Of a DNA stretch of 53,515 nt, positions 17,033 to 37,400 are shown one piece after another (positions within the stretch are counted from its first letter, which is position 1; each line of letters opens with the position of its first letter). The translations under genes and the position numbers were made by a program. Under the pieces are notes generated by a model. That model worked only from the letters and a program-made list of their open reading frames with translations. It did not search any database and was not told where the DNA came from. This stretch comes from a virus (lineage: Duplodnaviria; Heunggongvirae; Uroviricota; Caudoviricetes): IMG/VR virus record IMGVR_UViG_3300036828_000767, positions 1 through 53,515 of that record. One strand, written 5' to 3'.

Positions 17033-17902
17033 TCACGCCACGGCAGGGAACGGAGGGCCGAAAAATTCCTGCGCCTTACGGGGAATCAGGTACGGGTGTG
17101 CGCTGCTCATCGCATGCAGTTCCTCCGCGCCGATCACCCCCTGCAACCCGCCGGGGCCACGCCGGGTTTCCCACAACCACTGCAACATCACCCTCGAACC
17201 TGCCAGGTAGTTGTAGGGGATGATCTGGTAACCGGCGGTGTACCCGGCGACCACCCACCCGGTGATAGGCGTGCCGCGGACCACGTTGACAATGCCGGTG
17301 GACGAATCAATGTACAAATTCCGGCCCGTGGTGTTAGCGGGAAGCGGGCCACCGTCGGACAGCCAGTTCACCACGCCGTCTTCGCTGACCAGCGTGTCCA
17401 GCGAAATCACCGGCGTCGAAGCCACCTTCATCCTCGGCGTCTGCCAGCTCCACGACCACACGTCGAACTGGTGACTTTCACCTGTCACGGCACGGCGGGC
17501 GATTACCTCGTTCTTATAGTTCTCCACACTGCGGGTGATGCCGAACAGCATTTCCCGCAGTTCCTCATCGTCGTCAGTGTTCGCGGCGTCAATGCCGAGG
17601 GACTTCTTCCCCATCGCCAAAGACAGGATCATCGGCGGCGACGCCTCGGCAACGTCGAAGGCGTCTGTGTAGCCAACATTCGGGTTTTGCGTCACCCACC
17701 GGACCAGGTGCCTGCCAGCCTGAACGGTCTGATACGAAACCCGTAGCTGCCCATGAACAGTCGATGGCAACGACACTGTCGGGGTCACCGTGGTGCCGTC
17801 CGGCAACGTGATAGTCAGCGTTACCGAACCAGGATCGGTAAGCACCCCAGCGGCGTTAAACACATCGAGTGCCGCCGGGTAGATCGAACCGAGGTCGAAC
17901 AT
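17033..17902 (-). CDS. Head-tail adaptor with N-terminal Ig-like domain
   Basis: N-terminal DPGSVTLTITLPDGT...GRHLVRW; C-terminal DDDEELREML...VENY...VAGYTAG...LQWLWETRRG. Confidence 0.7.
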   Translation of the reverse strand: MFDLGSIYPAALDVFNAAGVLTDPGSVTLTITLPDGTTVTPTVSLPSTVHGQLRVSYQTVQAGRHLVRWVTQNPNVGYTDAFDVAEASPPMILSLAMGKKSLGIDAANTDDDEELREMLFGITRSVENYKNEVIARRAVTGESHQFDVWSWSWQTPRMKVASTPVISLDTLVSEDGVVNWLSDGGPLPANTTGRNLYIDSSTGIVNVVRGTPITGWVVAGYTAGYQIIPYNYLAGSRVMLQWLWETRRGPGGLQGVIGAEELHAMSSAHPYLIPRKAQEFFGPPFPAVA

Positions 17903-17912
17903 GACACCAACC

Positions 17913-20183: not shown

Positions 20184-20243
20184 GCAGGCCCTCCTGTCAG
20201 CCGCCCTGGGTGACGGTGACCGTCATCGCCACGATGGCATAGG

Positions 20244-20831
20244 TCAACTTTCCGCGTACAGCTTGGCCCAGTCAGGGGTGACCGTGTTCCCGGCGGTGCC
20301 CGCGCCGAGAATGATCGCCGGCCACAGGTACATAACCTGCTGCGGGTCGAACGTGGTGAACGTGACAGCGGTGTTGGCCGCCGGGCAGGACACCTTGAAC
20401 GGTGAGGCGAACGCCAGCGACTCCACCCAGCCTGAGGTGACCAGGGTCGAGTTCGCCCCCGGTGCGCCAAGCGCCCGCAGTTTGATGTGCCATTCGGCGC
20501 GGAACCGGGCCAGGGTCACCGCCCCGCCGGGGGTGTTGGTGCCGGAGACCGCATGCAACTGGTTGGTGGTGCTGAAGGCCGCCGGGTTGGCCTGGCTCAT
20601 GTACAGCAGGAACGCGAACGTGGGGATGGTCGCGGTGGCGGTCAGGCCGCCTTCGATTACCAGCTTCAAACTGGACGCCTGGTCGCCCAGTTTGAACATT
20701 TGCCCGGCCGGGACCGTGATAGCGGGCCACCCGTTGCACATCGTGGACCCGGGGCTGGCGGTCGGGACACTGGCCGACGCCGCTTGCGAGTAGGAGAACA
20801 GAGTCTCAACAACCCGGTCATAACCGGCCAC
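20244..20831 (-). CDS. Hypothetical virion protein
   Basis: 195 aa beta-rich ORF with GGAGG RBS in the structural operon. Confidence 0.65.
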   Translation of the reverse strand: MAGYDRVVETLFSYSQAASASVPTASPGSTMCNGWPAITVPAGQMFKLGDQASSLKLVIEGGLTATATIPTFAFLLYMSQANPAAFSTTNQLHAVSGTNTPGGAVTLARFRAEWHIKLRALGAPGANSTLVTSGWVESLAFASPFKVSCPAANTAVTFTTFDPQQVMYLWPAIILGAGTAGNTVTPDWAKLYAES

Positions 20832-20846: not shown

Positions 20847-21278
20847 TTAAGCCGCGCTAACCGACACAGCGTTTTGAGCGACAGCGAACGTGTTCCCGTT
20901 CGCCACCACAACAGGGTCGCCGTTCCAGTTCCCGAACCAGCCACGCGCCTGCGACGAGTCGATGATTTCCAGCGAGTGAATGCTCCAGTTGCCGCCGGAA
21001 CCGTTCACCCACTGCACACCGGCGAAGTTCGGCAGTGTCACCGCTGAGCCTGCGGAGGAAGCAGTCGAAGCGGTAGTGAGCACGAACCCGTTAGCGGTGT
21101 ACCCGGTGCCGGTCAGTTCCGTGCCGGACGCCGCCGCGGTCGAGTCGGTGGACGTCAGCTTCATCGTCATCGCTGTCGTGGTGGCGTACTGGGTGAACGC
21201 GGTCGGCTTCGCACCTGTCGCAGTCGGCAGCGAACCGTTCAAAAGGTTGGTGATCAGCGTGTTCGAAATGCCAGACAT
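20847..21278 (-). CDS. Small virion structural protein (fibre-associated family)
   Basis: GTELTGTGY...VTLPNF...GNWSIHSLEIIDS...VVANGNTFAV pattern common in phage structural modules. Confidence 0.6.
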   Translation of the reverse strand: MSGISNTLITNLLNGSLPTATGAKPTAFTQYATTTAMTMKLTSTDSTAAASGTELTGTGYTANGFVLTTASTASSAGSAVTLPNFAGVQWVNGSGGNWSIHSLEIIDSSQARGWFGNWNGDPVVVANGNTFAVAQNAVSVSAA

Positions 21279-21281
21279 GGC

Positions 21282-21662
21282 CTACCCCGTTGCCAGTTGC
21301 ATGTTCACCGGAGACGTCGCCGTCTTCGAACCAGGAACCACCGTGATCGTCAGCGGGCGGCACACCGTGCAGCCATCAATCCCAAGCCCGCAGTGACCGC
21401 CGGGGCACGGCTCACCAACCGGGGTAAGCACCGCGCAATCCACCACCGCGCAACCGCCGTGGCCACCGGCGCAGTTGTTCGCAGCCTTACCGTGGTGGTG
21501 GTCCTGCGGGCAACAGGAACAGGCACTTCCCGCACCAAGGTCAAACGCGGCATCAGGGTCAGTGTGCGGACAATCCGGCTTTCCGCAGCGCATCGCCTGC
21601 GGGGCCATCTCACATTCGGCGTAATGCGTACGGTGACACTGGTTGCAACTGATAGCCAGCAT
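21282..21662 (-). CDS. Cys/His-rich metal-binding protein
   Basis: 15 Cys and 8 His in 126 aa; AAGGA RBS. Confidence 0.65.
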   Translation of the reverse strand: MLAISCNQCHRTHYAECEMAPQAMRCGKPDCPHTDPDAAFDLGAGSACSCCPQDHHHGKAANNCAGGHGGCAVVDCAVLTPVGEPCPGGHCGLGIDGCTVCRPLTITVVPGSKTATSPVNMQLATG

Positions 21663-21689
21663 CCGGCCATCCTTTCGTCCAGGTCAACC

Positions 21690-22199
21690 TTACTCGGCGA
21701 CCCGCCTGAGTTGGTGATTGTAGAGACCCCAGCCAGCTTTGCCTTCCGCGTTGAGTTGCTGCATCCGGGCAGAGGAAGCAGCCCTGCGCTCCGGCGTCAT
21801 AGCCCGCGAAAGAGCAACGCGCGTCTCTGGCGTGAAGTCGTAGCGCCGATGACACGAGTGACACAAAGGCACGTAGTCAGCCCACGGGGCCTTACCGTCT
21901 TCACCGTGGACCTGTGCCCATTCGTGAGCGGTCTTGCTGATACCGTCCTCGGCGCAGCGCACACATTCGTGTTCGGTGGCCTTACCCCGCAGCCTGCGCA
22001 CCCGGCGGTGCAAGTTCATATAGCCGTTACCATCGCCCAGATCAGGACGGCTGTGATGACCGCATGTACAGCTCGGCGGACACATCACTCCCTTCCGGGG
22101 ATGGCCCTTATGCCGGTTGCAGGTACACCCTGACGCGCAAGGATGACTACGACTGGCGGGGTCATGCTTACCGCACCGACAATTAGGAGGGCATTTCAT
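21690..22199 (-). CDS. HNH-type endonuclease with three N-terminal CxxxCxCxxH repeats
   Basis: LHRRVRRLRGKATEHECVRC...YVPLCHSCHRRYD; repeats CPPNCRCGKH, CASGCTCNRH, CPPSCTCGHH. Confidence 0.75.
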   Translation of the reverse strand: MKCPPNCRCGKHDPASRSHPCASGCTCNRHKGHPRKGVMCPPSCTCGHHSRPDLGDGNGYMNLHRRVRRLRGKATEHECVRCAEDGISKTAHEWAQVHGEDGKAPWADYVPLCHSCHRRYDFTPETRVALSRAMTPERRAASSARMQQLNAEGKAGWGLYNHQLRRVAE

Positions 22200-22942: not shown

Positions 22943-23647
22943 TTAGTCCCTCCTGGGTATGGCGCGGAGCCAGCCATGCTGATGCCACATGTCACTACCT
23001 TCAGGGTAATGCGGGTGGCGTACAGTTTCCACATCGTGGCCGCTGGCGGTGAGCAGGGTTTCGCATTCTTCTTTCAGCCCTGGGGCGTGGAACTCTATCA
23101 GCCACTTCGTCCCGCATGCGGCCATGAGCATCTGACCGCCGCGGAGAACCGCCGCTTCGTGGCCTTCGGTGTCGATGACCACCAGGTCCGGGTCGCCGAT
23201 GTCATCGGCGAGAGTGTCGAGGGTGGTGCACGGCACCGCGTGCAGTTTCGCCTCACCCCAGTCCGGCAGCGACCACTCCATCCCGTCGGTGCCGGGGGTG
23301 ACCCATTCCCCCTTGCTGATAGCCATGGGTACTTCAGCGAGCTGCACCGTGCCGACATGGTCGGAGACAGCGACATTCATCAGCAGCGCCCACGGGATAT
23401 GCGCTTCACGTCTTTGGTCTTCCAGGTCAGGTTCAGCCCACGCATGGAACCGCTGCCGGAGGTCACCGTAGGAACCAGGTTCGGGTTCGCAGGCGATGAT
23501 GCCCCGGTACCCGAGGGCAGCGAACTGGGCGAAGTTTTCACCTTTCCTCGCGCCGATGTCGAACGCGAGGTCACCAATAAGGTCACGCCATAGGACCGGT
23601 TCGACGGAAGGCGGGTCAGATGGCACCAGAGGAGGCAGTTCAGGCAC
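22943..23647 (-). CDS. FkbM-family SAM-dependent methyltransferase
   Basis: AFDIGARKGE (motif I), IACEPEP, NVAVSD, VPCTTLDTL, LVVIDTEGHEAAVLRGG, LIEFH; GGAGGA before GTG at 23647. Confidence 0.9.
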   Translation of the reverse strand: MPELPPLVPSDPPSVEPVLWRDLIGDLAFDIGARKGENFAQFAALGYRGIIACEPEPGSYGDLRQRFHAWAEPDLEDQRREAHIPWALLMNVAVSDHVGTVQLAEVPMAISKGEWVTPGTDGMEWSLPDWGEAKLHAVPCTTLDTLADDIGDPDLVVIDTEGHEAAVLRGGQMLMAACGTKWLIEFHAPGLKEECETLLTASGHDVETVRHPHYPEGSDMWHQHGWLRAIPRRD

Positions 23648-24452
23648 TGATTCCTCCACGGACGGTGTCGAGCTGGTATTTGCCTGGTTCGCGGTGCGGG
23701 CGGAACGATTGCGCCTGGGAGAACGCAAACGACGTTTCGCTTGACGCCCAGCCTTCGAGGCGGCCGATGTTCTGCGACCTGGAAGCATCCGGCACCACGC
23801 ACAGCTTGTCATGGTTCGGCAGGATACGGGTCGCTATGTTCCAGTCCCAGCCAGAATCGAACCCCTTGGTGCCGGAAGTGCAATCCCAGTCCCAGTCCTT
23901 GGCGAACATGGGCCACCGGTCCCACCACGTACCCCAGCACCAGGCATTGAAGTACGGCGTAAGCCGCACCTGCCACTGGTCCGCGTCACCGTCATCAGCA
24001 GGCTCGTGTTTGTCCCACCCCTGCCCGCCAGGCGAATGAGCGCATACCGCAGCGACCTGCTCGTTGCTGGCGAACTCCGTTGCGGCCCAGGCGAAGTACT
24101 CCAGGATGTCGTCGGACACCACCACGTCTTCTTCGCCGAAAATCACAAACGCCGGTTCGGGGGACCAGTTCACCATGTCAGCGAACAAGGCGTCGCCCAT
24201 GTCGCCGATAGCCCTGTGCATGCCCATGTTCGGCACGGGGTCAGGGTGAACAATCACACCAGGGCGGTGCATCAGTTCGCTCTGCTGGAGGACGGCTGTC
24301 ATTTCCCGTTCCCGGTCGCTACGGCCCATCGCGACGTAGAACTCTTGCACTTCGCCGATACCCCGGGCTTGTTCCCACGATTTGACAGTTTCCCGCCAGT
24401 AGTAGGGACGCTTACAAGCGGTCGTGGCGACAGCCATGTCGGCTGGGGTCAC
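23640..24452 (-). CDS. GT-A glycosyltransferase, GT13 (GnT-I)-like
   Basis: TACKRPYY, VIFGEEDVVVSDDILEYF, AVCAHS, FNAWCWGTWWDRW, GWDWNI, VVPDASRSQNIG; start uncertain (24437-24530). Confidence 0.7.
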   Translation of the reverse strand: MTPADMAVATTACKRPYYWRETVKSWEQARGIGEVQEFYVAMGRSDREREMTAVLQQSELMHRPGVIVHPDPVPNMGMHRAIGDMGDALFADMVNWSPEPAFVIFGEEDVVVSDDILEYFAWAATEFASNEQVAAVCAHSPGGQGWDKHEPADDGDADQWQVRLTPYFNAWCWGTWWDRWPMFAKDWDWDCTSGTKGFDSGWDWNIATRILPNHDKLCVVPDASRSQNIGRLEGWASSETSFAFSQAQSFRPHREPGKYQLDTVRGGISA

Positions 24453-24513
24453 CAGGATGCACCCTTCGGCACGTAGGCCCGCACCGTGCCGCAGCGGACC
24501 GGCAGGGGGTATC

Positions 24514-24693
24514 TCACGCGCCTTCCTCATGCGCCGAATGGAACAGCCCGGTGCCGCACGCCACGCAAGCCGCCATGTTCATCGGGTCCGGCGTGAACGG
24601 GTGCTTCACCTCCTGCGCGTCCGCGGTGGTGCCGTCGATGCCGTACGCCTGACGCACCGGCTCACCGCGGTTCTCGAACTGCTGGTCAGTCAC
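24514..24693 (-). CDS. Small Zn-finger-like protein (59 aa)
   Basis: MTDQQFENRGEP...KHPF...CVACGTGLFHSAHEEGA; GTGA overlap with upstream gene; not in ORF track. Confidence 0.6.
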   Translation of the reverse strand: MTDQQFENRGEPVRQAYGIDGTTADAQEVKHPFTPDPMNMAACVACGTGLFHSAHEEGA

Positions 24694-24902
24694 GACTGCC
24701 TCGCAATTGCGGCATTACCCCAGAACATGACTTCCTCCAGATGAGTGATGGCCAGGGACTTCTCCCGGCCTTCGGGAAGCATCGCGTTCAGGTTGTAGGC
24801 GAGCACCTTGCAGCCCTGCCTCACATCGTGATGCTCGTTGACCCGGAACTGGTCCGGCGGGGGATGATGGCCGAACCTGGCATCAAGATCGTCAGGGCTC
24901 AC
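24690..24902 (-). CDS. Tad1/Acb2-like hairpin protein (candidate nucleotide-signal sponge)
   Basis: RFGHHPP...PEGREKSLAITHLEEVMFWGNAAIAR resembles the Tad1 C-terminal helix (SRENACALTHVEEALMW, recalled). Confidence 0.7.
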   Translation of the reverse strand: MSPDDLDARFGHHPPPDQFRVNEHHDVRQGCKVLAYNLNAMLPEGREKSLAITHLEEVMFWGNAAIARQS

Positions 24903-25066
24903 TTGTGACCCTTCTTCTTCTCGTCCTTGGTGCCGTCAAGCTGGAACGGCACCGCGTACCCGCCAGCGGAATCGACATCCAGTGACATGACACGCATCTG
25001 CCCGTCACCGGTACCAGCGTCCTGCACCTCGACGATCTGCGGCTGCTCAGTCTTCTTGTCGGGCAT
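24899..25066 (-). CDS. 55-aa protein carrying a copy of the major-capsid N-arm motif
   Basis: MPDKKTEQPQIVEVQDAGTGDGQMRVMSLDVDSAGGYAVPFQLDGTKDEKKKGHK; AGGAGG RBS; stop overlaps next GTG; not in ORF track. Confidence 0.75.
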   Translation of the reverse strand: MPDKKTEQPQIVEVQDAGTGDGQMRVMSLDVDSAGGYAVPFQLDGTKDEKKKGHK

Positions 25067-25075
25067 TGCTTCCTC

Positions 25076-25216
25076 CTATCGCGCGGGCCACCCGGCCTCG
25101 AACCCGGGGATACCCAACCGGAACAACCACGGCAGCGACCGGACACGCGGGTCATCCGCTGCCACCATCCCGAACGAGTTGCCGTTGCTGTACGCGCTGT
25201 TGCCATTAAGCAACAT
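25076..25216 (-). CDS. Small hypothetical protein (46 aa)
   Basis: AAGGAAGG RBS; MLLNGNSAYSNGNSFGMVAADDPRVRSLPWLF, weakly like VAAGHPILR...LF of 22667-22942. Confidence 0.5.
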   Translation of the reverse strand: MLLNGNSAYSNGNSFGMVAADDPRVRSLPWLFRLGIPGFEAGWPAR

Positions 25217-25288
25217 GACTACCTTCCTTGAACGTAGTGACCTGCCGTTATGTCGAGCGGCTAACATTTCGGCCATGGACAAGCCTTT

Positions 25289-26053
25289 TCATACACTACC
25301 AGGCCGTGGTCTGAACCAGTTTGGCGGACAACGCCGCTCCCGGACGTAGCGCGGCCACGTCCCGTCCACATCCACGGCCACCATCTGTACATCATGATGC
25401 TCACCGTGGTAGTACCCGTGCCCCCCCGCGAGGATGCGCCGTTCCAGGTCCGGCAACTCCCGGTGACATGACACTGTCAGCTTCTCGTTCTGCGCCTGCG
25501 GACCACCCAACCAGGACAAATGCCACCCACCGTCCGCAAGCAGCCGGTACGCAGGCCGCCCATCACGAACCGCAGACAGCTTCTGCCCCTTGATGTACTT
25601 CGCCAGGCCGATCACCGAACCAGGCATCGGCGCCGGGTACAGCCAGTCCACCGCACTATGACAGGTCCGCATCAGCAGCCCCGCCGGCGGCCCGCCGTAC
25701 GTCATCAGGTGCTGCGCCGGGATTTCGTCCGCGTCGGCGATCAGCACCAGGTCGTCGTCGGCGGCGAGCTTGTCAATGGTGGCGCACATGGCGTCCCGCT
25801 GGGCATGTTCACGCACCCACGGGTCCTCTGCGTCGGGCAGCTCCGGCACCACCACGTGGAATATCTTGTCCCACCACCGGTTGAACCGGCCTTCGTTCGC
25901 CGCGTAGAAAAGCGGCTTGTCCCGGCCGTGGAAATCCTGCAACGACTCGACAAGGACATGGTTCACTTCCACGCCGTATGCCTCGAACTCCTCGAACCGG
26001 CACTGGGCCATATCCAGCTCGTTGCGGAACATGAACGTGTCCCAGATCATCAT
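25289..26053 (-). CDS. GT17-family (GnT-III-like) glycosyltransferase
   Basis: DTFMFRNELDM..RF, HVLVES, KPLFY, EHAQRD, DDLVLIADADEIP, GGWHLSWLGG. Confidence 0.85.
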   Translation of the reverse strand: MMIWDTFMFRNELDMAQCRFEEFEAYGVEVNHVLVESLQDFHGRDKPLFYAANEGRFNRWWDKIFHVVVPELPDAEDPWVREHAQRDAMCATIDKLAADDDLVLIADADEIPAQHLMTYGGPPAGLLMRTCHSAVDWLYPAPMPGSVIGLAKYIKGQKLSAVRDGRPAYRLLADGGWHLSWLGGPQAQNEKLTVSCHRELPDLERRILAGGHGYYHGEHHDVQMVAVDVDGTWPRYVRERRCPPNWFRPRPGSV

Positions 26054-26766
26054 GAGATGTGCAGCCCCTCTTTAAACGCCGCCCATGTTTGCGCCGTGTA
26101 AGGCTCACCGCCGAGTTTCTCAATATCAGCGTTCAGCCCGTCCGCGCAATACGTGTCAAACGCGATCCTGTCTTTCCATGCCAGCCCCACGGACCTGGCG
26201 TACGTGTCGTCGTACTCGGCACCACCGCCGCCGGTGAAGTGCAGGTGCGGTATCTCCACGTCATGCAGGTATGTGATGCCGCATGCCTTCCCCCAGGCCA
26301 TCCACACCGGGTCCAGCCACATGTGCCTGATCGACGGCACAGCCAGGTAACCGAGCGTGGTGACAGTGTCCGCGCTGGTGAACAAGTGGCAGCACAGCGA
26401 CCCGGGCTCGCGCGGGTACTTGTCGTTGCCGAACGCGAACCGGGTCTCCTCCAGGGCATCTATCAGGTGAACATCCCACCCGTTTGTCACCGGCACGTTA
26501 TCGTCGCCGATATGGCCAAGGAACTTGTACCCCTCCGCGGCGGCGTCCTCAGCGAGCCGGTTGATCCACGGGCCTACGTTGGTGAGCGAATCACTGACTG
26601 TGTATTCAACCCCGTCCAGCCGGGGATAGCTGGCCTCATCATCAGCGTCCAGGCCAACGATGAGCCTGGTGAAGCCCTGGCACGTGCCCTGCATCGCGTC
26701 ATGCAGGCGCTGAATGTTCCGCGGGCGCCCACGTGACGGGACGATCACCGCCAGGTCTTTACGCAT
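26050..26766 (-). CDS. GT2-like glycosyltransferase
   Basis: LAVIVPSRGRP, VGLDADD, GHIGDDNVPVTNGWD, HMWLD, EIPHLH. Confidence 0.8.
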   Translation of the reverse strand: MRKDLAVIVPSRGRPRNIQRLHDAMQGTCQGFTRLIVGLDADDEASYPRLDGVEYTVSDSLTNVGPWINRLAEDAAAEGYKFLGHIGDDNVPVTNGWDVHLIDALEETRFAFGNDKYPREPGSLCCHLFTSADTVTTLGYLAVPSIRHMWLDPVWMAWGKACGITYLHDVEIPHLHFTGGGGAEYDDTYARSVGLAWKDRIAFDTYCADGLNADIEKLGGEPYTAQTWAAFKEGLHIS

Positions 26767-27691
26767 CCCTGATCACCTGATCCCAGTCTTCCACTTCGGG
26801 GAACGTGCCCCGCATCACAACATGAGCGCCGTTGGCGAAGCTTTTCACCTGCATCGAGTCGCTGGACGGATGCACCTGGCTCATACCCATCAAGCCTGCT
26901 ATTTCCAGGGCCTGCCTGTACTCCCGGTCTTTATTACCGCCGATCACGACGAACTCCACCTCGCCTGGTTCATCAGCAAGAAGCACCAGGCGGGACAGGT
27001 CCGCGGCCAGGGTCGGCTCAGCTCCGGTGACCACCGACACCAGCCGCGGGTTCGCAGGGACACCTTCCAGCAGCGCAGCGAGCTTCGCCAGGTCTTTCGC
27101 CCGTTCCCGTTCCATCTCCACCGCGTGGAAAGTAGCCACATTGGCAAGCTGATCCCGTGCCAGGGCTGTGGCGTCGCGGACCTTCCGGTGGCTTACCGTC
27201 ACCGGGATGTGCCTGGTCCGGCGGAGCTGCTCACCCAGGGCAATGATCCACATGTCGATGGAGTGGTCAAGGCTGAGCCGCCCCAGGCATTCGAACCAGG
27301 CCGCCGGGATCACCGGGAAACAATTCATCCCAAGCGCCTCGGGCACATAAGACCACAGCACCGAGAACGGCAGCCCGCGGATGTAAGCGTCCCAGCCGTG
27401 TGTCCGCATGACCGCGTCGTCGTTCCAGATGAAAAGCCAGTCACCCGTTGCGAACTCGGCCAGGTCGTTGTAATACCGGTGCAGTCCGCCGTACCCGTAA
27501 CGCTCAGGCGACACGTGGACGCGGATGCTCGGCGTGCCCGGGGGGTAGGGAATGTGGTCGTCGGGGTCAACGGCGATGCAGATTTCCACGTCGTCGGGCC
27601 GGGTGGCGTTGTTAAGCAGGGATTCGACACTGTGCCGCATCATCGTGTCCCTGCTGCGGGTGGGCAGCAGAACCGAAATCTTCTCGGTCAC
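26759..27691 (-). CDS. GT2-like glycosyltransferase
   Basis: ISVLLPTRSR, IAVDPDD, GDWLFIWNDDAVMRTHGWD, SIDMWI. Confidence 0.8.
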   Translation of the reverse strand: MTEKISVLLPTRSRDTMMRHSVESLLNNATRPDDVEICIAVDPDDHIPYPPGTPSIRVHVSPERYGYGGLHRYYNDLAEFATGDWLFIWNDDAVMRTHGWDAYIRGLPFSVLWSYVPEALGMNCFPVIPAAWFECLGRLSLDHSIDMWIIALGEQLRRTRHIPVTVSHRKVRDATALARDQLANVATFHAVEMERERAKDLAKLAALLEGVPANPRLVSVVTGAEPTLAADLSRLVLLADEPGEVEFVVIGGNKDREYRQALEIAGLMGMSQVHPSSDSMQVKSFANGAHVVMRGTFPEVEDWDQVIRDA

Positions 27692-28083
27692 GGCGCCAGA
27701 AGCGGCACATCAAGCCGCTCGGTGTCTGTTTCGTAGTCCTCCCCGGTGCGCGGCCCCCTGGTGAACACCAGCACCGTGGTGTCTTCCAGAGCCCGCCAGG
27801 CATGCGCGATACCAGCGGGCTCGCAGAGCATCGTGCCGGCGCCGAATTCCACGGGGACGCCGTCAACGGCGACGTGCTTACCAGCGACGAGCATCCGGCC
27901 GGACAGGATGTACGTCCACTGGGTTGTGCGTTTGTGAATGTGGTTGCCGCGTACCGCGCCCGCACGGGTGAAGATGTGCGTCACGCCGTCGATGATGGTG
28001 CTGCCGAACATGTTCAGCAGCGGCTGCAACGGCAAGTCCTGGATGATGCCACGGCGGTCTTCGAACCGGTCAGCCACGTGCAA
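27688..28083 (-). CDS. Cupin (RmlC/FdtA-like sugar isomerase/epimerase)
   Basis: FEDRRGIIQD, AVRGNHIHKRTTQWTYILSG, GIAHAWRALED. Confidence 0.8.
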   Translation of the reverse strand: MHVADRFEDRRGIIQDLPLQPLLNMFGSTIIDGVTHIFTRAGAVRGNHIHKRTTQWTYILSGRMLVAGKHVAVDGVPVEFGAGTMLCEPAGIAHAWRALEDTTVLVFTRGPRTGEDYETDTERLDVPLLAP

Positions 28084-29200
28084 CCTCCGCGATCTTCGGT
28101 TCGGGCAGCGGGATGATGAACTTCCCCTGGTAGCCCTTGCCGGTCAGGGACTTCATGATGTCGCCGGCGATATGCCAGGAAAAGATTAGCGCGTACGGAG
28201 GCTGGTCTGCGATGAGCTTCGCCTCATCCACAACGGGAATCTGAGTTCCCGGCATCGTCTTGCCGATTTTCTCGCTGCCGGGAACCTCGCACACGCAGGA
28301 CACATAACCAGAAATCCCGGCGAAGTGGATCAGCGGCGTCGCCCTTGTGGTCGCCCCGATGCCGTAGATGCCGCCGGAAAGCCCGCCGAGCAGCCTTCGC
28401 AGTTCCAGGCCGGCCTGGTTCGCCCGGTTGGTCAGTCCGCCGAACTGTGGTGCCTTCGCGGCGAACACCCGCATCGACCCGCCGTGGGTGTCGATATGCT
28501 CCACGGCCTTTACTTGAAGCCCGCCGTTTTCCAGCAGCCGGGTGAGCGTCCCAGGCGTGTAGTACCGCAAGTGCTCGTGGTAAACCGTGTCGATCTGCAA
28601 GCCGTGCTCCACGGCGCTGAAGTCGTGGCACTCGGTGACGAACACGCCCGTGGGGGACAGCAAATCAGCGACGCCGCAGACAAAATCCACCGGTTCCGGG
28701 ACATGCGCCAGAACATTCGTCGCGGTCACCACCTCCGCCTGGCCGTAATCCTGAACGATCCGCCACGCCAGGTACGAGGTGAAAAAGTCCTGGTAGACGT
28801 TCATGCCTTTGGACTGGCATTTCAGTGCCTGCCTGGTGGGCTCCACCGCCACCTTGGTGCACGCCTGCGGGAACGCTTCCAGCAGCGTCCCGTCGTTCGC
28901 GCCGATATCCACCACCAGGTCGTTTTCCCGCAGCAGCCACGACACCTTGTTCGCCAAGCCCTCAAAATGCCACCGCAGCGCCTTAGTGTTCCCCGAAGCG
29001 TACGGGTGATCCGGCGGGAACAGTTTCTCCTGCGGCACCGCGTAAGACAGTTGCACCAGGAAACAGTTCGTGCACCGCCGCAGCTTCAACGGGAACACTT
29101 CACTGCTGCCGTAAGCCTCAGCGACAGGCTGATCACCCATGTCAAGCAGGACCACGAAGTTATGCCCGCCGCACAGCGCGCAGGACCGAATCTCAGCCAT
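28070..29200 (-). CDS. NDP-hexose C-methyltransferase (Zn-binding N-terminus, SAM domain)
   Basis: CALCG...LDMGDQPVA...LRRCTNCFLVQL; VVDIGANDGTLL; TNVLAHV; DTVYHEHLRYY; THGGSMR; KIGKTMPGTQIPV; KFIIPLP. Confidence 0.9.
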   Translation of the reverse strand: MAEIRSCALCGGHNFVVLLDMGDQPVAEAYGSSEVFPLKLRRCTNCFLVQLSYAVPQEKLFPPDHPYASGNTKALRWHFEGLANKVSWLLRENDLVVDIGANDGTLLEAFPQACTKVAVEPTRQALKCQSKGMNVYQDFFTSYLAWRIVQDYGQAEVVTATNVLAHVPEPVDFVCGVADLLSPTGVFVTECHDFSAVEHGLQIDTVYHEHLRYYTPGTLTRLLENGGLQVKAVEHIDTHGGSMRVFAAKAPQFGGLTNRANQAGLELRRLLGGLSGGIYGIGATTRATPLIHFAGISGYVSCVCEVPGSEKIGKTMPGTQIPVVDEAKLIADQPPYALIFSWHIAGDIMKSLTGKGYQGKFIIPLPEPKIAEVARG

Positions 29201-30155
29201 TGTTCTGGTACCACGTAACAGTCGCCGACAGGCCGTCCTTGAACGGCGTCCTGACAAGGTTCCCGATGCCGGCGAGCTGGTCCATCTTCGTGGTGTCGGG
29301 CAACCGCTTCGGCGGGGAGCCCTTAGGCAGCGTCCCGGGGATCACCTTGACCTGCTTCCCGTAGCAGGCCGCTACCTCGTGGGCGACCTGCTCGATGCTC
29401 CGCTCCACCATGGTGCCGACGTGGTACACGCCGGTCTGCCCCTTCTCCAGCAGCAACGCCAACTGCTCCACACAATCGCTGATGTAGCAGAAAGACCTGG
29501 TTTCCAGGCCGGTGCCCTGGATGGGGAACGGCAGAATCGCCGCGCTGGGCTGCTCCTTAACAAGCTGGTTCATCCGCAGGCAGAACTCCGGGATGACATG
29601 CTCACGGCCCATGTCGGGACCGTAAATGTTATGCGGGCGGGCGATCACGGCCCGGTCCAGCACCCCGGTGCGCTGCCACGCCAGCGTCACCAGCTCGGAG
29701 GCGATCTTTCCGCCGCCGTAGGAGTACCGGGGGTTCAGCACATCCGGGACTGTCAGCGGCACATCCTCACCGGTAGGTACTTCCGGTGCCACCTGGTACG
29801 CCTCGCTGCTGGACACCAAGAGGAAATCACCGCAGCCCCACTGTTCGCACGCCGACATCAGGTTCAGGACGCCCCGCAGCGCCACGTCCAGTACCTGCCT
29901 GGGCTCCGCGTAGAACGTCTGCGTGCCTTGCAGGTACGCCAGGTGAATAACAGCGTCCTGACCCTGCACAGCCCGGTGGACCTTCATCTCGTCGCGGATG
30001 TCGCCAGGGATCAGGTTCACCGGGGTGTTCCGCAGCCGTTCAGCCTTCCCCCTGGACAGGTCATCCAGCACGGTGACCTCATGGCCGAGGCCGTACAGGT
30101 GCTTGCAAAGACTGCTGCCGATGAACCCGGCGCCGCCGGTGACTAGAACCCTCAT
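29193..30155 (-). CDS. NAD-dependent nucleotide-sugar epimerase/dehydratase (extended SDR)
   Basis: VLVTGGAGFIGS, VSSSEAY, RYSYGGGK (YxxxK), RPHNIYGP, RSFCYISD. Confidence 0.92.
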   Translation of the reverse strand: MRVLVTGGAGFIGSSLCKHLYGLGHEVTVLDDLSRGKAERLRNTPVNLIPGDIRDEMKVHRAVQGQDAVIHLAYLQGTQTFYAEPRQVLDVALRGVLNLMSACEQWGCGDFLLVSSSEAYQVAPEVPTGEDVPLTVPDVLNPRYSYGGGKIASELVTLAWQRTGVLDRAVIARPHNIYGPDMGREHVIPEFCLRMNQLVKEQPSAAILPFPIQGTGLETRSFCYISDCVEQLALLLEKGQTGVYHVGTMVERSIEQVAHEVAACYGKQVKVIPGTLPKGSPPKRLPDTTKMDQLAGIGNLVRTPFKDGLSATVTWYQNNG

Positions 30156-30781
30156 TACGCCTCCACGTAGCGGAAGTGCGGACTGTCTATTTCCACCCGG
30201 CCGGGCTTGGGCATGTTCGGCAGCATCCCTGCCTGGACGCTGTCACTGCTCGAATGCCGGTAGTAGTACAGAACCCTATCCAGGTAAACCTCCGCCTTCA
30301 CGTGCGGCCTGACACCGCCCCGCCAGGTGAAATCCTCCGGCCAACCCTGCGAAAAGTCACCTATTCGCGCCAGATCGGCACGTACCGGCTGCACGTGGGT
30401 CAGGTCCCGGTACAACACGCCAGCGGCCCAATCGTCACGCGGGGTGTTGACGATACTGTTCAGCACCCTCACCGGCAGGCCGCCGTCCCGGGTGTAGATC
30501 GTCTCGAATCCCACCACGTCAGGACCAGCTTCGAGGGCAGCCAAAATGACCGGCACATAGTCGTCGGCTACAGCGTCGTCGTCATCTATGAAACTGACGT
30601 ACTCGCCGCGGGCCGCATCCAGCAGCACCTGCCGGTACACGCCCACCGGCTTCTCGCCGTTGTTGTGCAGTGCGACTATCTCCACGTCATCGCCGGTTAT
30701 CTGCGACAGAACCATCCCAACCAACCCAAGGAACCGGGACTGCCGGTAACCAATCGTCGGGATCAGGATGCTCCACTTCAC
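30155..30781 (-). CDS. GT2 glycosyltransferase
   Basis: WSILIPT, LDAARGEYVSFIDDDD; GTGA overlap with upstream gene. Confidence 0.88.
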   Translation of the reverse strand: MKWSILIPTIGYRQSRFLGLVGMVLSQITGDDVEIVALHNNGEKPVGVYRQVLLDAARGEYVSFIDDDDAVADDYVPVILAALEAGPDVVGFETIYTRDGGLPVRVLNSIVNTPRDDWAAGVLYRDLTHVQPVRADLARIGDFSQGWPEDFTWRGGVRPHVKAEVYLDRVLYYYRHSSSDSVQAGMLPNMPKPGRVEIDSPHFRYVEA

Positions 30782-31467
30782 CGCAGTGCCTTCACTGTCG
30801 CGACATCCGCCGCCATCCGGTGAGCCTGCCATTCCAGGTAGGCCCGGTAGTCCCGGTGGTCGGTGTGGAAGCCTCCGGCGTCGCCGTAGGTGGCATCCAT
30901 GGAGGCTTTGCCGGTGGTGTGGTGGAGGTGCTCAACTATCACGTCAGGGTTATACACCAGGCACCCGGCGGCGTGGCCCAGGTCTGACCACACGTTGTCC
31001 ACGCAGTAATGACCCAGGGCGGGCAGGCACATCCAGCCCAGCGCACGAACTATCTCCACACTGATCACCGGCGCTGTCGCCAGGCGTTTACCCATCGCCA
31101 GGTCATCCCCGTAAGCGATACCAGGCCCGCCGGTTTTCGACACCGACATCATCAGCTTCTGGTCCCACCCCACCGTGCGAGGCAGGTGATCGTCGCCGAA
31201 CGACGCAAAATGGGTGAACCCTTTATCCAGCGCGGCCAAGGCCAAGACGTTCGTCCACCCGGCCAGAGACTTCCGTGGCCCCACCGTGTACGTCACGTCC
31301 GCCCCACCAGCGGCATCCATGTACACCGGCAGGTACACGTCGTCATCGTCGAGGCCAACCGCCACCGTGGTGTCCTTCGCCCTGGTGACACGCAAAGCGT
31401 CGATCATCCTTGCCAGCCCCGCCGGCCTGCCTCTGGACGGGACAATCACCAGCAGCCGGTACAGCAT
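30778..31467 (-). CDS. GT2-like glycosyltransferase (paralog of 26050-26766)
   Basis: LLVIVPSRGRP, VGLDDDD, SFGDDHLPRTVGWD, HYCVDNVW, VEHLH. Confidence 0.8.
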   Translation of the reverse strand: MLYRLLVIVPSRGRPAGLARMIDALRVTRAKDTTVAVGLDDDDVYLPVYMDAAGGADVTYTVGPRKSLAGWTNVLALAALDKGFTHFASFGDDHLPRTVGWDQKLMMSVSKTGGPGIAYGDDLAMGKRLATAPVISVEIVRALGWMCLPALGHYCVDNVWSDLGHAAGCLVYNPDVIVEHLHHTTGKASMDATYGDAGGFHTDHRDYRAYLEWQAHRMAADVATVKALR

Positions 31468-31471
31468 CTGG

Positions 31472-31639
31472 TCAGTCTTCTTCGCCGGAGGTGACACGCT
31501 CTGCCTCCGGGCACGGGGAAACGTGGTGAATGGACCGGATTTGACTACGCCAGAGTTTGACAATGGGCGCTCCGCAGCCGGTACAGACAAGCAAACCATC
31601 GGCGTTCCTGACCACCCTGACACCATCGGCAGGTGTCAC
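31472..31639 (-). CDS. Small Zn-finger-like protein (55 aa)
   Basis: MTPADGVRVVRNADGLLVCTGCGAPIVKLWRSQIRSIHHVSPCPE...; fills the gap between two GT genes. Confidence 0.5.
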   Translation of the reverse strand: MTPADGVRVVRNADGLLVCTGCGAPIVKLWRSQIRSIHHVSPCPEAERVTSGEED

Positions 31640-31647
31640 CGGCCCGC

Positions 31648-32847
31648 TCACAGCTTCGCCTCTATGGCGGCAAGAGCCGGAATCCAGTACTTCTCCAGCA
31701 CCGTATCCACGTCATACTCCTGAGCGTGCGCCCGGGAAGCGGCACACTTCGCCCGATACGGCCCGTCTCGTTTGTACGCCTTCTCGAACGCTTTGACAAG
31801 CTCAGCAATGAGCGGCTTGTCCCACCAGGAGTCATGACCAGGCCGCCAGTACGGTTCCGACTTCACCTCGTACGCGACCGGGCCGACCACCTCGTGCATG
31901 GCGCTGCCCCACCCGCCGGCGCCGTGCTTCCCCGGCCCGTACTGGTCCTCCCCAGTGCCCCTGGTGGACACCACCGGAACACCGCATGACAGGGCCTGCA
32001 ACGCGGGCAAGCCAAACCCTTCGGCGAGAGACGCACCAGCGTAAAGGTCAGCGATGCCGTAGTTGGACCGGAGCGTTTCCGCACGGATCATCCCGGCGGT
32101 CAGCAGGTACTGGTCGGTCCAGGCGATCCCGTCGAGGCAGCCCATCCGCGCTGCGGTGTACGGCAAGTCCAGCCCGCTGTTTGTCGTTTGCAACGTGTGG
32201 CACATCAGCAGGGCGTCAGGGTGCTTGACACGGAACCGGGAGAACGCCGCGAACAGTTCCGCGTAGCCTTTCCGGTCATGGGACAGGTTCGCCGCGTCGG
32301 TGAAGATGATGAACCGGTCGTCGAGACCGAGGGCTTCCCTGGCGGCTTTCTTATCCGCCGGCGGCACCCACAGCGTCTTGGTGTCGATGCCGTGCGGCAC
32401 ATAGGTGGAGCTGTGACCAACTTCGGCGAGCTGCTTCTGCGCGAAATGTGTTAGTGCCAGCAGGTGCGTCTTCACGCCGGCGTTTTTGGCGTTTTCCAGT
32501 TCGTTGCTGTCACGGGTGGACAGCGGCGAACAGTCCACCGGAATCCAGAACGCCACGTGACGGCCGCGGAGTGTTTCCTTCGGCAAGGCCCACTGATCCA
32601 TGAGCGCTATCACAAGGTCGGCTTTGAAATGTTCGGCGTGCTTCCCGATGATGTCGCCGCCGTAGTTATGCTGCCCGCCAGGGTAGACGGGGATGCCTTC
32701 CCATCTGGTCATCCCTCCTAGATGACCGTAAAACGACGAGATCGCCACCTCGTGACCGAGTTCAACCAGTTTCCTAGTCCATACGCCTGTCTGTACCCCG
32801 TATCCGGTGCCTGCCCAGGCGGCATTACTATGCCACAAGATACGCAT
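31648..32847 (-). CDS. GT4 (GT-B) glycosyltransferase
   Basis: MRILWHS, TGYGVQT, VPHGIDT, DRKGY, AEGFGLPALQALSCGVPVV. Confidence 0.92.
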   Translation of the reverse strand: MRILWHSNAAWAGTGYGVQTGVWTRKLVELGHEVAISSFYGHLGGMTRWEGIPVYPGGQHNYGGDIIGKHAEHFKADLVIALMDQWALPKETLRGRHVAFWIPVDCSPLSTRDSNELENAKNAGVKTHLLALTHFAQKQLAEVGHSSTYVPHGIDTKTLWVPPADKKAAREALGLDDRFIIFTDAANLSHDRKGYAELFAAFSRFRVKHPDALLMCHTLQTTNSGLDLPYTAARMGCLDGIAWTDQYLLTAGMIRAETLRSNYGIADLYAGASLAEGFGLPALQALSCGVPVVSTRGTGEDQYGPGKHGAGGWGSAMHEVVGPVAYEVKSEPYWRPGHDSWWDKPLIAELVKAFEKAYKRDGPYRAKCAASRAHAQEYDVDTVLEKYWIPALAAIEAKL

Positions 32848-33060: not shown

Positions 33061-33093
33061 GGGGCCGGGAGTTTCGCTCATGCTCCCGGCCCC
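33061..33093. terminator. GC-rich hairpin
   Basis: GGGGCCGGGAG/CTCCCGGCCCC 11-bp stem just downstream of 33125-33373. Confidence 0.65.
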
Positions 33094-33124: not shown

Positions 33125-33373
33125 CTACTTGTCCGCAGGCTCCGCGGGAATCTGCCCCGTAGCGGGATCGCGCTGCTCGGCGTACGGATCGCTTTGACCA
33201 TCCACGTAGGGCCGCTCCGGGTCAACCATCACCGGAACCTGCTCCCGGGGCTGGGCCGTCGGGTCAACACTGGGAGCCTGCGGGTCAAACTCCCCCTCAG
33301 ACTCCGTGCCGGACCGCTCGTCAGCACCGGCCTTCTTGCCGTCCTTGCTCTCCATGCTCTTGTTCCCAGTCAT
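33125..33373 (-). CDS. Acidic, probably disordered hypothetical protein
   Basis: 82 aa, GAGG RBS. Confidence 0.55.
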   Translation of the reverse strand: MTGNKSMESKDGKKAGADERSGTESEGEFDPQAPSVDPTAQPREQVPVMVDPERPYVDGQSDPYAEQRDPATGQIPAEPADK

Positions 33374-34463: not shown

Positions 34464-37400
34464 CTACAGGGTGCTGAGCAGGCGGAATGCGTTGGGCACG
34501 AGCACCCGGCTGTTGTTAAACCAAATCGCGAGAATCCCTCGTTGGCCGACCGGGAACCGGTTGGTCGAGCCGAACAGGTGCGGGATCAGCTCGATGCCCA
34601 TGCCGATCCGGTCCACGATCAGGAACTGGCTGAAGTCGCCCTGGAGCAGGACGAGGGAGCCAGACGAAATCGCCGTGGTCATCGTGGACAGTTCGTACGC
34701 CGGGTAGCCGTTGAACGTCGCCGGAGTACCAGCGGAAGGCCGCACCCACGAGTCGAACGCGGCCGAGGCGAGAGCCTGGAAGAGCTGACGGAACCGGTTG
34801 AAGGTCGTCTTCGACGCCAGGTAGGCGCTCTGCTGACGGAACCGGGGAGCCATCTGGTTTTCCAGGTTGTACAGGTCACCAATCGCCAGGGTCGCCGTAC
34901 CCGCCGTGTTCACCAGCGAAGCGGGGCTGGAGTCATGCAGCGTCTGGATGACACCGTTGGCGTTCGGGGCGGTGCCGTTGCCGAGGGCGAACGAAGTTGC
35001 TTCCTCAACGTCCTTGGCATCCATCAGCAGGTTCGTCATCTGGGACCGCAGCGCGCCCCAGGAGACGTCCAGCTCGATGTTGAACGGCACGAAACCCTGC
35101 ACCCGCGTGGTGCGGACGTTCGGCTGCACCAGCAGCGGGTCACCGGTCGCGGCTTCAGTTCCTTCAGCGACACGGTTGACAACCACACCAGCGGACGTCA
35201 CGCCGTCCCATTCCTTGCCGGTGATCTGCTCCACCCGGGAAATCTGGCGAAGCGGGTTGATGGCCCCATTTGAGGACAAAATCACCGTTGGGTCGAGCTG
35301 GAACGGTACGGCGAAACCGCCTGCGGAGTCCACACCGAGCTGAAGGGCTCGCTGCTCCTCAGTGTTCAGGCCATTCACGCTCAGCGACCCAAGCATCTTG
35401 CCGAACGCCCGGTCGTAAAGCGGCGAACCGGTGACCAGGACACGCCGGGCCAGGGAGCCGCCCTCGTCATCCACCCGGTCAAGCAGGTTCGCGACCGTCT
35501 CCTGGCAGTCCTCGCGGGACTTCGGACCGGAATACCGGACCGCGTCCAGGGCACGCATCGCGTGCTCCCGGTACAGGGTGGGCACCTCGTCGAAGTTGTG
35601 CGCCTTGTGCCGGATCGCCGTCAGGTCGAAAATCTGCTCCGGCTTCATCGGGTTGTAGAACATCGGCCCGGTGCCGAGACGGTCCTTGACATAGGCGGGC
35701 GCGTTCCTGACCGTGGTGCCGTAACCACCCTGGCCCCCGCCGGGAGTGAACCCAACACCGGGGAAACCGATGCCAGCGTTGTCGATGCCCTCCATGGCAC
35801 CCTCGTCGCCGCTCTCAACGATGGTCCGCAGGTACTGGGCGCGAGCCGTGGCGTCCTTAATGGCCCGCTGATGCTCGATCAGTTCCTGCTGAAGGGAAGT
35901 CCACTCGGTTCGGGTGTCGGCCGGAAGTTCGGCACCCATGTTTTCGGTGTCGATCTCTTGCAGCCGGTGCTGGACTTCCATGAGCCGCGCCTGCCGCTGG
36001 TCGATGGACATAAGTCCTTCCATCGTCTCGCTCTCCTTGATAGTGCTCGGGGGTGCCGGGTGCGGCTGCGGCCCTGGCTTAACGGCGGCCCCAGTGCTTG
36101 CGTCTGCGTTACGCGGGACGGCGGCGGCTGGCTTCCTGCCGGAACTGCTAGAACTCTTTGTATCACCCTTTGCCGCCTGAATGGCGCGTTCATGCGCCTC
36201 CAGGTGCGCCCTTGCTGCCGTCGCGTTCATCAAACCCTGAGCGCCGGCAAGGCGGCCGAGTGCATTACTGACACCATGCGCGTTCGGCGGGTCGCCTGGC
36301 TTGTAGTGGTGCGGGAGACCCCACGTGGCTTGCAACTTCGGGTCGCCCTTACGGCGGCCCGCGCAAACCGCGGCGTAAAACTTGGCCGGGTCATTCGACG
36401 CCGAACCCGCAGCCCACACCTTCCCCGCATCCCACGCGGAAGTGTCCACACTGCCATGGCTGTCATCGGCAGGTTCGGCGGCATCAGGTGCGGCACGCCC
36501 TTCCTTGTCCTTCATCGGCTTCCCCGGTACCGGCTTCTTCTGCTTCCCATCGGCCGTCCAATAATCATGGTCGGTGTCGGTGGAAGCCTTCGAGTCGTCG
36601 TCGCCGTCCTTATCGGGGTCAAACTTGCCAGCCTTCGACGCGGCGACACCAGTCGGCGTGCCCATATCGTCGGCGTCCGGCTCAGTTTCCTTCTTCTTCT
36701 TGCCCTTACCAGCGCGGCCTGAAGTACCGGGGTCGTGGTCGTGGTCGTGCAGCGCGTCGCCCTCGTGGTCGTGTTCATGGCCGTGCATTCCGTCGCCGTT
36801 GTCGTCGGGGCCGTCATAAGCGTTGTGGTTGTGGGAATGCGAACCGGTATGGGTGCCATGCGTGGCCACCGTAGTGTCACGCGCCGGTACTGGGCTTGCC
36901 ATGTCATCGGCGGCCGGTGCCGCCGTGGCCCGCTCAGCTTCCACGTCGTCGTCCCTGGCTGAATTGGAAGTCATTCCTGCGGCTCCTGTCACCACCGCCG
37001 GGTACGCCTTATTGTCCGCCTGCGCGGACGCACCAGCGTCTTCGATATGCGCCCGCAGGTGCGCCTTCGCCTTCTGCTTGCTGTCGGTGGGGAACCCTTC
37101 GATGGAATCAGCCTTCAGAAGCGCGTTCCGGGAGGCGATAAGGTTCGCCGCGCCGGGGGTGCCATCGTCGTTGACGTGGTGGTGCGGCAGGTAACCATGC
37201 TCGGGCATGTAGTTGCCGCCGTTTCCCGCACCAGCGGCCTGATCGGCAAGGGCGTACACCGACTGCATGTGGTCCCAGGACGTGGGGAACTTCAACTTGC
37301 CGATTTCGGCCTTGGGGTCGTAGTCGGTCGTGGCCACGTCGGTGTGGTGAACCGGCACACCGGTCCGGCTCTGCCCGTTCAAATTGACGATCTCCATTGC

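Follow-up and report, generated by a model that had tools for sequence, protein, structure and literature searches.

The window analyzed here, a stretch of 53,515 nucleotides, covers the opening 53.5 kb of a virus record in IMG/VR (IMGVR_UViG_3300036828_000767; 117.5 kb), which was judged to be 93% complete and is a large uncultured phage infecting high-GC Gram-positive bacteria. An island on its minus strand (22943-32847) encodes seven glycosyltransferases, an extended short-chain dehydrogenase/reductase (SDR), a C-methyltransferase, a cupin, and an FkbM methyltransferase, and families and folds are established for all eleven enzymes. We propose, with a probability of roughly 0.55, that these soluble, cytoplasmic enzymes decorate virion proteins with a complex methylated glycan. 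Most likely, the island is a greatly expanded counterpart of the system that O-glycosylates capsid and tail-tube proteins in the mycobacteriophages Che8 and Corndog.

In the proposed scheme, the phage would draw on a host nucleotide sugar. The SDR would oxidize this sugar at C4, most likely by decarboxylating a UDP-uronic acid to a UDP-4-keto-pentose, and the C-methyltransferase, an enzyme of the TcaB9 type, would move the methyl group of S-adenosylmethionine (SAM) to the carbon beside the keto group. The cupin would epimerize or isomerize the product, and the keto group would then be reduced, possibly by the same SDR. Seven soluble cytoplasmic transferases would assemble the glycan on an acceptor protein, and the FkbM enzyme would O-methylate it. 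What we infer in this scheme is which substrate is used, in which order the enzymes act, which protein accepts the glycan, and when the genes are expressed.

What was observed directly is the gene content, the enzyme families, a conserved gene order, and, in related phages, a linkage to capsid genes. The eleven enzymes, named in an earlier sequence-only reading of this DNA, are all present on the minus strand, each in a frame whose G+C content at third codon positions (GC3) is 0.69-0.85, as expected for the coding DNA of this genome. That reading had described the genes as mostly overlapping, and nine of the 12 junctions do overlap, by 1 to 17 bases. Its gene list needs correcting in that three tiny unrelated ORFs (open reading frames) interrupt the block (24514-25066). 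It had also placed the block between the capsid and head-tail adaptor genes; the position is right, with the qualification that 5 kb and seven ORFs separate the island from the adaptor. No membrane segment was found in any island protein, no flippase, polymerase, or GT-C enzyme was found among the island genes, and a megablast search of the island against cultured phages gave no match. In gene order, with E-values unless bits are given, the island reads as follows:

31648-32847, minus strand: GT4-type (GT-B) glycosyltransferase, the first gene of the island (Glycos_transf_1 6e-9, Glyco_trans_1_4 1e-7, phrog_2170 7e-25)
30778-31626, minus strand: GT-A glycosyltransferase of the phrog_14945 family (8e-37); the start may be 31497
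30155-30781, minus strand: GT2 glycosyltransferase (PF00535 1e-7, phrog_14775 6e-33)
29193-30155, minus strand: extended SDR, probable nucleoside diphosphate (NDP)-uronate decarboxylase yielding a 4-keto-pentose, alternatively a dehydratase or ketoreductase (PF01370 1.5e-43)
28070-29200, minus strand: NDP-sugar C-methyltransferase of the TcaB9/KijD1/TylC3 family (Methyltransf_13, _23, and _14)
27688-28083, minus strand: cupin of 131 amino acids, presumed keto-sugar epimerase or isomerase (Cupin_2 7e-9, dTDP_sugar_isom 2e-3)
26759-27691, minus strand: probable GT2-like glycosyltransferase, weak match (PF00535 21.8 bits, just below the cut-off; phrog_14945 5e-7)
26050-26766, minus strand: GT-A glycosyltransferase (phrog_14945 3e-34)
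25289-26053, minus strand: GT17-like glycosyltransferase (PF04724 8e-22, 78.2 bits against a cut-off of 26)
24514-25066, minus strand: three tiny coupled ORFs (55, 70, and 59 amino acids) with no glycosylation role (Acb2_Tad1_hairpin, phrog_1454)
23640-24530, minus strand: GT13-like (GnT-I/POMGNT1-like) GT-A glycosyltransferase of 296 amino acids, assigned by Foldseek and motif; the start may be 24437
22943-23647, minus strand: FkbM-family methyltransferase, the last gene of the island (PF05050 2e-15, 57.6 bits; TIGR01444 3e-16, 60.2 bits; both above their cut-offs)

The C-methyltransferase has the full three-domain set of its family, with an N-terminal zinc ribbon, a class I SAM domain, and a C-terminal Methyltransf_14 domain, and it matches PF08421 (Methyltransf_13, 4e-12), PF13489 (Methyltransf_23, 2e-10), and PF08484 (Methyltransf_14, 5e-20), all above their cut-offs. 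Its matches include KijD1 (4e-40), TcaB9 (3e-39), and MtmC (7e-37). Four zinc-binding Cys, the active-site His, and a Y-x-E-H motif align with TcaB9 and KijD1 and are invariant in the phage ortholog; these residues presumably have the roles described in work on TcaB9. The same three-domain build and the same residues are shared by the actinomycete antibiotic C3-methyltransferases TcaB9, KijD1, TylC3, and MtmC, to which the window enzyme, itself phage-borne, is about 30% identical. It is predicted to methylate an NDP-4-keto sugar at the adjacent carbon. Unlike the antibiotic enzymes, which are accompanied by 2,3-dehydratase and ketoreductase genes, the window C-methyltransferase is paired with a UXS-like SDR, and because of this pairing, its likely substrate is a 4-keto-pentose rather than a dTDP-4-keto-2,6-dideoxyhexose.

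The SDR had previously been taken for a plain epimerase, an assignment that we abandon, because its motifs align with those of UDP-glucuronate decarboxylase and its bacterial orthologs adjoin 6-dehydrogenases. Within the ortholog group, the SSSE[AV]YQ and YxxxK motifs are invariant, as are S115, S117, E118, Y146, K150, and R284. The protein aligns with human UXS (4lk3) through the SSE motif, the PRxxYxxxK loop, a G-x-G-x-x-T-R-A-F segment, and R-x-P-D-I; the extended SDR build, S-S/T-E, PRxxYxxxK, and R-x-P-D-I are common to UXS, the ArnA C-terminal domain, and the bifunctional UDP-4-keto-pentose/UDP-xylose synthase. Its catalytic motif is Ser-Ser-Glu, unlike the Thr-Asp-Glu of the dTDP-glucose 4,6-dehydratase RmlB. 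Against a role as RmlB stand the absence of Thr-Asp-Glu and a TIGR01181 score of 109 bits, compared with a cut-off of 365; none of the curated NCBIfam models reaches its cut-off on this protein. The SDR is thus probably a UDP-uronate decarboxylase as far as its motifs tell, and because of this resemblance, the branched sugar may be a C-methyl pentose, not a mycarose-like hexose.

Gene neighborhoods in bacteria point in the same direction. The nearest cellular C-methyltransferases (at most 43% identity) come from Chlamydiales, Chromatiales, Bacteroidota, and other metagenome-assembled genomes (MAGs), and an SDR ortholog (41-50% identity) lies directly upstream of them. A nucleotide-sugar 6-dehydrogenase (TIGR03026, above the cut-off) is present in five of the five bacterial loci that are long enough, adjoining the SDR or the C-methyltransferase. 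Two of the five also contain genes for a DegT aminotransferase and an acyltransferase, and in one, an ArnC-like transferase is close by. By analogy, these loci would follow the logic of the Arn pathway, in which the SDR likewise comes after a nucleotide-sugar 6-dehydrogenase, and in the aminotransferase loci, the SDR more likely makes a keto sugar than reduces it. We therefore regard as rather likely a route from UDP-uronate to a 4-keto-pentose and on to a C-methyl-4-keto-pentose. A full-text literature search returned no paper linking a C-methyltransferase with UDP-4-keto-pentose.

The MAG loci (L007, L008, L010, L013, and L016) also deserve mention in their own right: they share a conserved module of a 6-dehydrogenase, a UXS-like SDR, and a TcaB9-like C-methyltransferase, extended in two loci by the DegT aminotransferase and a hexapeptide acyltransferase, which suggests an undescribed C-methyl (amino)pentose pathway across diverse phyla.

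The cupin completes the cassette. H48, H50, Q55, and H94 are invariant in 32 orthologs, and this His-x-His/Gln/His site resembles the metal site of oxalate decarboxylase, next to an N-terminal D-x-R-G motif that is RmlC-like. The latter motif, and weak matches to RmlC, EvaD, and Cap5F, would suit a different chemistry with the same virion target, namely that the cassette reproduces the three final steps by which mycarose or nogalose is made, starting from host dTDP-4-keto-6-deoxyglucose. These steps would be C-methylation, 3- or 5-epimerization by the cupin, and 4-ketoreduction by the SDR, giving a 6-deoxy-3-C-methyl-hexose. Every solved relative of the C-methyltransferase uses dTDP-4-keto-6-deoxyhexoses, and a dTDP-glucose dehydratase is among the best SDR matches. 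The three enzymes would be enough for this route, with no need for a phage dehydrogenase, and precursors of rhamnose are plentiful in Mycobacteriales and in numerous other actinobacteria. On the other side, the SDR carries S-S-E where RmlB has T-D-E, and it shares the loop and R-x-P-D-I of UXS. The aminotransferase loci need no ketoreductase, yet keep the SDR ortholog paired with the 6-dehydrogenase. A mycarose-like hexose, which the sequence-only reading had brought up, is thus not the product that we favor, given the SDR motifs and the 6-dehydrogenase neighbors, and we see this route as a lesser possibility.

The same reading had also ascribed to the phage its own pathway to a branched methylated nucleotide sugar. 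The three-enzyme C-methyl cassette agrees with this, whereas the start of such a pathway is missing: no sugar-activating enzyme (nucleotidyltransferase) was found in the phage genome, so the phage modifies a host nucleotide sugar and runs no whole pathway.

The cassette recurs well beyond the window. Cultured phages gave only six distant C-methyltransferase matches, at most 29% identical (jumbo phages, a cyanophage, and a fecal metagenome contig), with no actinophage among them. IMG/VR, in contrast, holds many orthologs at 42-59% identity. There, 43 loci of high-GC phages have SDR, C-methyltransferase, and cupin genes in this order on one strand, the median gaps being 11 and 5 bases. Wherever the sequence reaches far enough, the trio is nearly always followed by changing sets of the same transferase families, sometimes with FkbM; therefore, the trio is a conserved cassette and the transferases form a variable shell. 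The cassette is conserved and previously unnoted. At the far end of the island in a second phage lineage, a transposase (phrog_506, 2e-42) lies at 18672-20456 of locus L002, which hints at how transferase sets get exchanged.

Taken further, the shared cassette of these high-GC soil-type phages (a UXS-like decarboxylase, a C-methyltransferase, and a metal-site cupin) might turn host UDP-uronic acid into a C-methyl-branched pentose nucleotide that rapidly exchanging transferase sets put on capsid C-termini, giving one glycan coat per lineage. We offer this only tentatively; no description of such a sugar class was found.

Direct family support exists for five of the transferases, namely the GT4, GT2, and GT17 enzymes and the two phrog_14945 members. 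The GT4 enzyme has orthologs in other islands (31-39% identity), as does the weak GT2-like protein (33-45%), and the ortholog of the GT2 enzyme comes after the cupin in most related islands. The two phrog_14945 members are paralogs of each other (34% identity). The one at 26050-26766 is the most widely conserved transferase of the related islands, with an invariant G-D-D motif, and its AlphaFold2 model (pLDDT, the predicted local distance difference test score, of 93.7) shows a GT-A fold, with RmlT, WrtF, SpsA, and TarP as best Foldseek matches (E 1e-8 to 1e-6). The GT17-like protein has no homolog in cultured phages and has orthologs in three related loci (L092, L098, and L104).

The GT13-like protein matches no Pfam family, the GNT-I model included, even at E = 1. 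Its model has a pLDDT of only 63.5, and Foldseek places it with POMGNT1 and GnT-I at E of about 1e-9 and a template modeling (TM) score of 0.57. Its atlas neighbors carry GNT-I or MGAT2, it is 32% identical to Microbacterium phage Magritte gp8, which is annotated as a glycosyltransferase, and an E-x-D...D motif (E102, D104, and D110) is invariant. With a modeled GT-A fold nearest to GnT-I and the acidic motif kept, it is a predicted GT13-like enzyme. For the FkbM gene, GTG 23647 is a more probable start than 23812, to judge from a GGAGG-type site and the overlap of this start codon with the upstream stop.

As a side observation on the phrog_14945 family, homologs with 32-38% identity occur in Streptomyces phages of the BE/BK type (~130 kb; hits H33-H61), where they adjoin nucleotidyltransferase or heptose-phosphate adenylyltransferase genes and form another unstudied sugar module.

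The kinds of transferases also bear on the target. Soluble GT2 and GT4 enzymes frequently use lipid-linked acceptors at the membrane face, and the conserved GT-A fold is nearest to wall-teichoic-acid and O-antigen enzymes (RmlT, TarP, and WrtF). The island could thus remodel a glycan or glycolipid of the host envelope during infection, its transferases acting on lipid-linked or lipopeptide precursors and the outcome being a block of superinfection or of progeny sticking to debris. The bacterial SDR/C-methyltransferase pairs, which lie in polysaccharide loci, one of them with an ArnC-like polyprenyl-phosphate transferase, would fit such a role. The island, however, encodes no flippase, polymerase, GT-C enzyme, or other membrane protein. 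Gtr-type and lysogenic surface-conversion cassettes combine a membrane flippase or GT-C enzyme with a temperate phage, and the window phage shows neither. No integrase or resolvase was found in the 117.5-kb record (93% complete), so stable conversion would not be possible; lysogenic modification of the host surface, which had been named as an alternative, is unlikely on these two counts.

The location of the island favors the virion as the target. The virion genes of the window lie on the minus strand, and those that matter here, with two candidate acceptors and a hairpin, are:

40515-42140, minus strand: large terminase
38026-39792, minus strand: portal
34464-38036, minus strand: fusion of prohead protease and major capsid protein (context), 1190 amino acids (Peptidase_S78 3e-10, Phage_capsid 2e-20)
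33061-33092, minus strand: GC-rich hairpin upstream of the island, with an 11-bp stem and no U tract, a possible terminator or attenuator (sequence and fold)
20847-21278, minus strand: Ser/Thr-rich Gp80-like fiber protein of 143 amino acids, candidate acceptor only (atlas PF23140 Gp80 clusters, TM 0.73)
17913-20183, minus strand: Thr/Ala/Gly/Val-rich protein of 756 amino acids ending Lys-Gly-Ser, candidate acceptor only (composition and C-terminus)
17033-17953, minus strand: head-tail adaptor (context; phrog_442 3e-15)
14713-15192, minus strand: tail tube protein

The protease-capsid fusion is 37-40% identical to those of the Rhodococcus phages REQ1 and Madraxi, the latter being the nearest cultured relative of the window phage. 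It is followed by four small ORFs, the island, seven ORFs in a gap of ~5 kb, and the adaptor, and beyond the adaptor by the tail tube protein, chaperones, tape measure, and minor tail proteins. The distance from capsid to adaptor is 16.5 kb in the window, compared with 0.5 kb in Madraxi.

A link to capsid genes is also seen in related phages. A second type of capsid gene lies 3-9 kb upstream, on the same strand, in 22 of the trio loci. A search with this capsid (alignment A3) yielded 80 loci, and island-type genes are present in each of the 35 loci that continue for at least 7 kb downstream of the capsid gene; in 19 of these 35, there is a full trio, which starts 2.2-7 kb past the capsid stop. 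The capsid proteins of this clade nearly all end in G-[AGP]-[AST]-[ST] (e.g., GASS, GAAT, GPTT, and GGS). No island-free members of the clade were found, so that tail and island are associated with no contrast group for comparison. In a further lineage (L100/L110), head-morphogenesis genes lie just upstream of the island. In five records that bear an island, a search with PF05065 detected no capsid gene. Remodeling of the host envelope does not explain a linkage to capsid genes with Ser/Thr tails across a whole capsid clade, and we consider it unlikely.

Another possible target is phage DNA, on which the transferases would place a glycan to evade restriction. Transferases of DNA-hypermodifying phages are known (Pyle et al. 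2024, as cited in PMC12619734), the island of the L092/L098 lineage adjoins clamp-loader and pyrophosphatase genes, and phrog_14945 members also match a family labeled DNA methyltransferase, by way of a fused protein. DNA-glycosylating phage systems, however, have a hydroxymethyl-pyrimidine enzyme, and the 117.5-kb record shows no thymidylate-synthase-like enzyme (no match to PF00303; other routes to hydroxymethyl bases were not searched), which makes DNA glycosylation unlikely. In addition, GT2, GT4, GT13-like, and GT17 enzymes are of the kinds that act on polysaccharides or protein glycans, and the island stands behind capsid genes in most loci. We hold this explanation to be very improbable.

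Several observations weigh against a virion glycan or against the chemistry proposed for it. First, the capsid protein of the window ends in LLSTL and the tail-tube protein in NITIP, and neither is extended when compared with Madraxi or Brujita, so the proteins expected to bear the known acceptor motif are without it; the lack of a C-terminal Ser motif in both would suit an envelope target. The earlier claim of a complex virion glycan is supported by the capsid-adjacent transferases, the cassette, and the Ser/Thr tails of related capsids, and is not supported by the phage's own capsid and tail-tube proteins. Second, the L092/L098 island, in which the transferases (GT13-like, GT2-like, and GT17) are the set most like that of the window, has its clamp-loader and pyrophosphatase neighbors in place of head genes. 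Third, a strong hairpin (33061-33092; -41 kcal/mol for an 86-nucleotide context, z = -3.1) directly follows the ORF at 33125-33373, and with 215 noncoding bases before the first island transferase, it sets the island apart from the head genes. The hairpin is possibly an attenuator separating the two. Because of these features, co-transcription is unproven and membership of the virion operon uncertain; an island inside that operon, as had been claimed, stands as far as its place between the capsid fusion and the adaptor is concerned. Fourth, a nine-sequence SDR profile searched against the PDB scores about equally on dTDP-glucose dehydratases, an uncharacterized SDR, and UXS. Since such scores do not separate the three and no curated model reaches its cut-off, the SDR is told apart only by its motifs and gene neighborhood. 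Fifth, the best matches of the cupin profile in the PDB are metal-binding oxalate decarboxylase domains (3e-11), with WxcM, RmlC, and Cap5F matched weakly. Sixth, unlike the bacterial loci, the phage has no 6-dehydrogenase, nor was a nucleotide-sugar 6-dehydrogenase found in its phage relatives, so the uronate must come from the host. Finally, Corndog gp35-38 gave no BLASTP match at 1e-3 to the window proteins tested; the Che8 transferases were not fetched.

The acceptors that the sequence-only reading had put forward are still candidates, among them the two proteins listed above. The 756-amino acid protein has no known family and no cultured-phage homolog, and its KGS-type ending could be due to chance (an estimated ~0.2 expected among ~30 proteins). 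The Gp80-like fiber protein has a homolog (58% identity) downstream of the island in locus L108. As separate observations, the former protein contains a 165-bp tandem duplication (18876-19199), many hydrophobic stretches, and an N-terminal domain of ~230 amino acids common to other phage proteins.

To our knowledge, phage virion glycosylation is known from just a few mycobacteriophages, each with two or three transferases. In Che8 and Corndog, capsid and tail-tube subunits reportedly carry glycans at their C-termini (Freeman et al. 2023, cited from PMC12619734 and PMC11600133), and Corndog carries an O-methyltransferase and three transferases within its structural operon (Cresawn et al. 2015, PMC4351075). 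Like the window phage, the actinobacteriophages Che8 (cluster F) and Corndog (cluster O) encode transferases and a methyltransferase within or next to their structural module. Their capsid and tail-tube proteins (gp6 and gp11 of Che8, gp41 and gp49 of Corndog) have the C-terminal residues GS, GS, GS, and DS, which resemble the Gly/Ser/Thr capsid tails of the lineages related to the window. The differences are considerable. The window has seven transferases where Che8 and Corndog have two or three, and it adds a three-enzyme nucleotide-sugar cassette with a C-methyltransferase, which cultured actinophages lack. Its island follows the capsid gene, whereas the Che8/Corndog type is placed between portal and protease. 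The C-terminal Ser of the Che8 and Corndog proteins is missing from its own capsid and tail-tube proteins, a Ser/Thr tail being present in the related capsid clade.

Giant viruses (chloroviruses and mimiviruses; PMC9614988) likewise encode nucleotide-sugar-modifying enzymes, transferases, and sugar methyltransferases for their own particles, but their hosts are eukaryotic and their glycans are N-glycans or fibril glycans; the term "C-methyl" is absent from that review.

These results suggest that some uncultured actinobacterial phages carry a far richer and fast-varying glycan machinery with its own rare-sugar chemistry. If this is true, particle glycans would be a general trait of a large phage group, and a capsid end of the Gly-x-Ser/Thr type together with transferases just downstream would be a marker pair predicting glycosylated phages. 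The cassette would then also be a compact and portable source of branched methyl sugars for glycoengineering. Mycobacteriophage virion glycosylation is reported to weaken the neutralizing antibody response (PMC11600133).

Other sequence features around the island gave little. Consensus promoter and terminator scans produced matches at chance level, no exact minus-strand copy of the genome's TGnTATACT promoter motif lies near the island, and an Rfam search gave no match. Between the island and the fiber-like genes (21282-22199, minus strand), two Cys/His-rich proteins of 126 and 169 amino acids contain many CxxC and CxxxH motifs and match no family except, weakly, phrog_4160.

The three tiny ORFs that interrupt the island are:

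24899-25066, minus strand: 55-amino acid ORF with a strong ribosome-binding site, matching a piece of capsid protein
24690-24902, minus strand: 70-amino acid Acb2/Tad1-like protein (Acb2_Tad1_hairpin in Pfam, 2e-19; phrog_1454, 4e-26)
24514-24693, minus strand: 59-amino acid ORF

An overlapping ORF (24892-25206) was ruled out as a gene, since its GC3 pattern suits the wrong frame. Residues 23-46 of the 55-amino acid product (24 residues) match part of the protease-capsid fusion of Madraxi at 54% identity, and the product is possibly a capsid-fragment decoy. The Acb2/Tad1-like ORF is translationally coupled to the two others, and its family match suggests that its product is probably a sponge for host immune signaling nucleotides.

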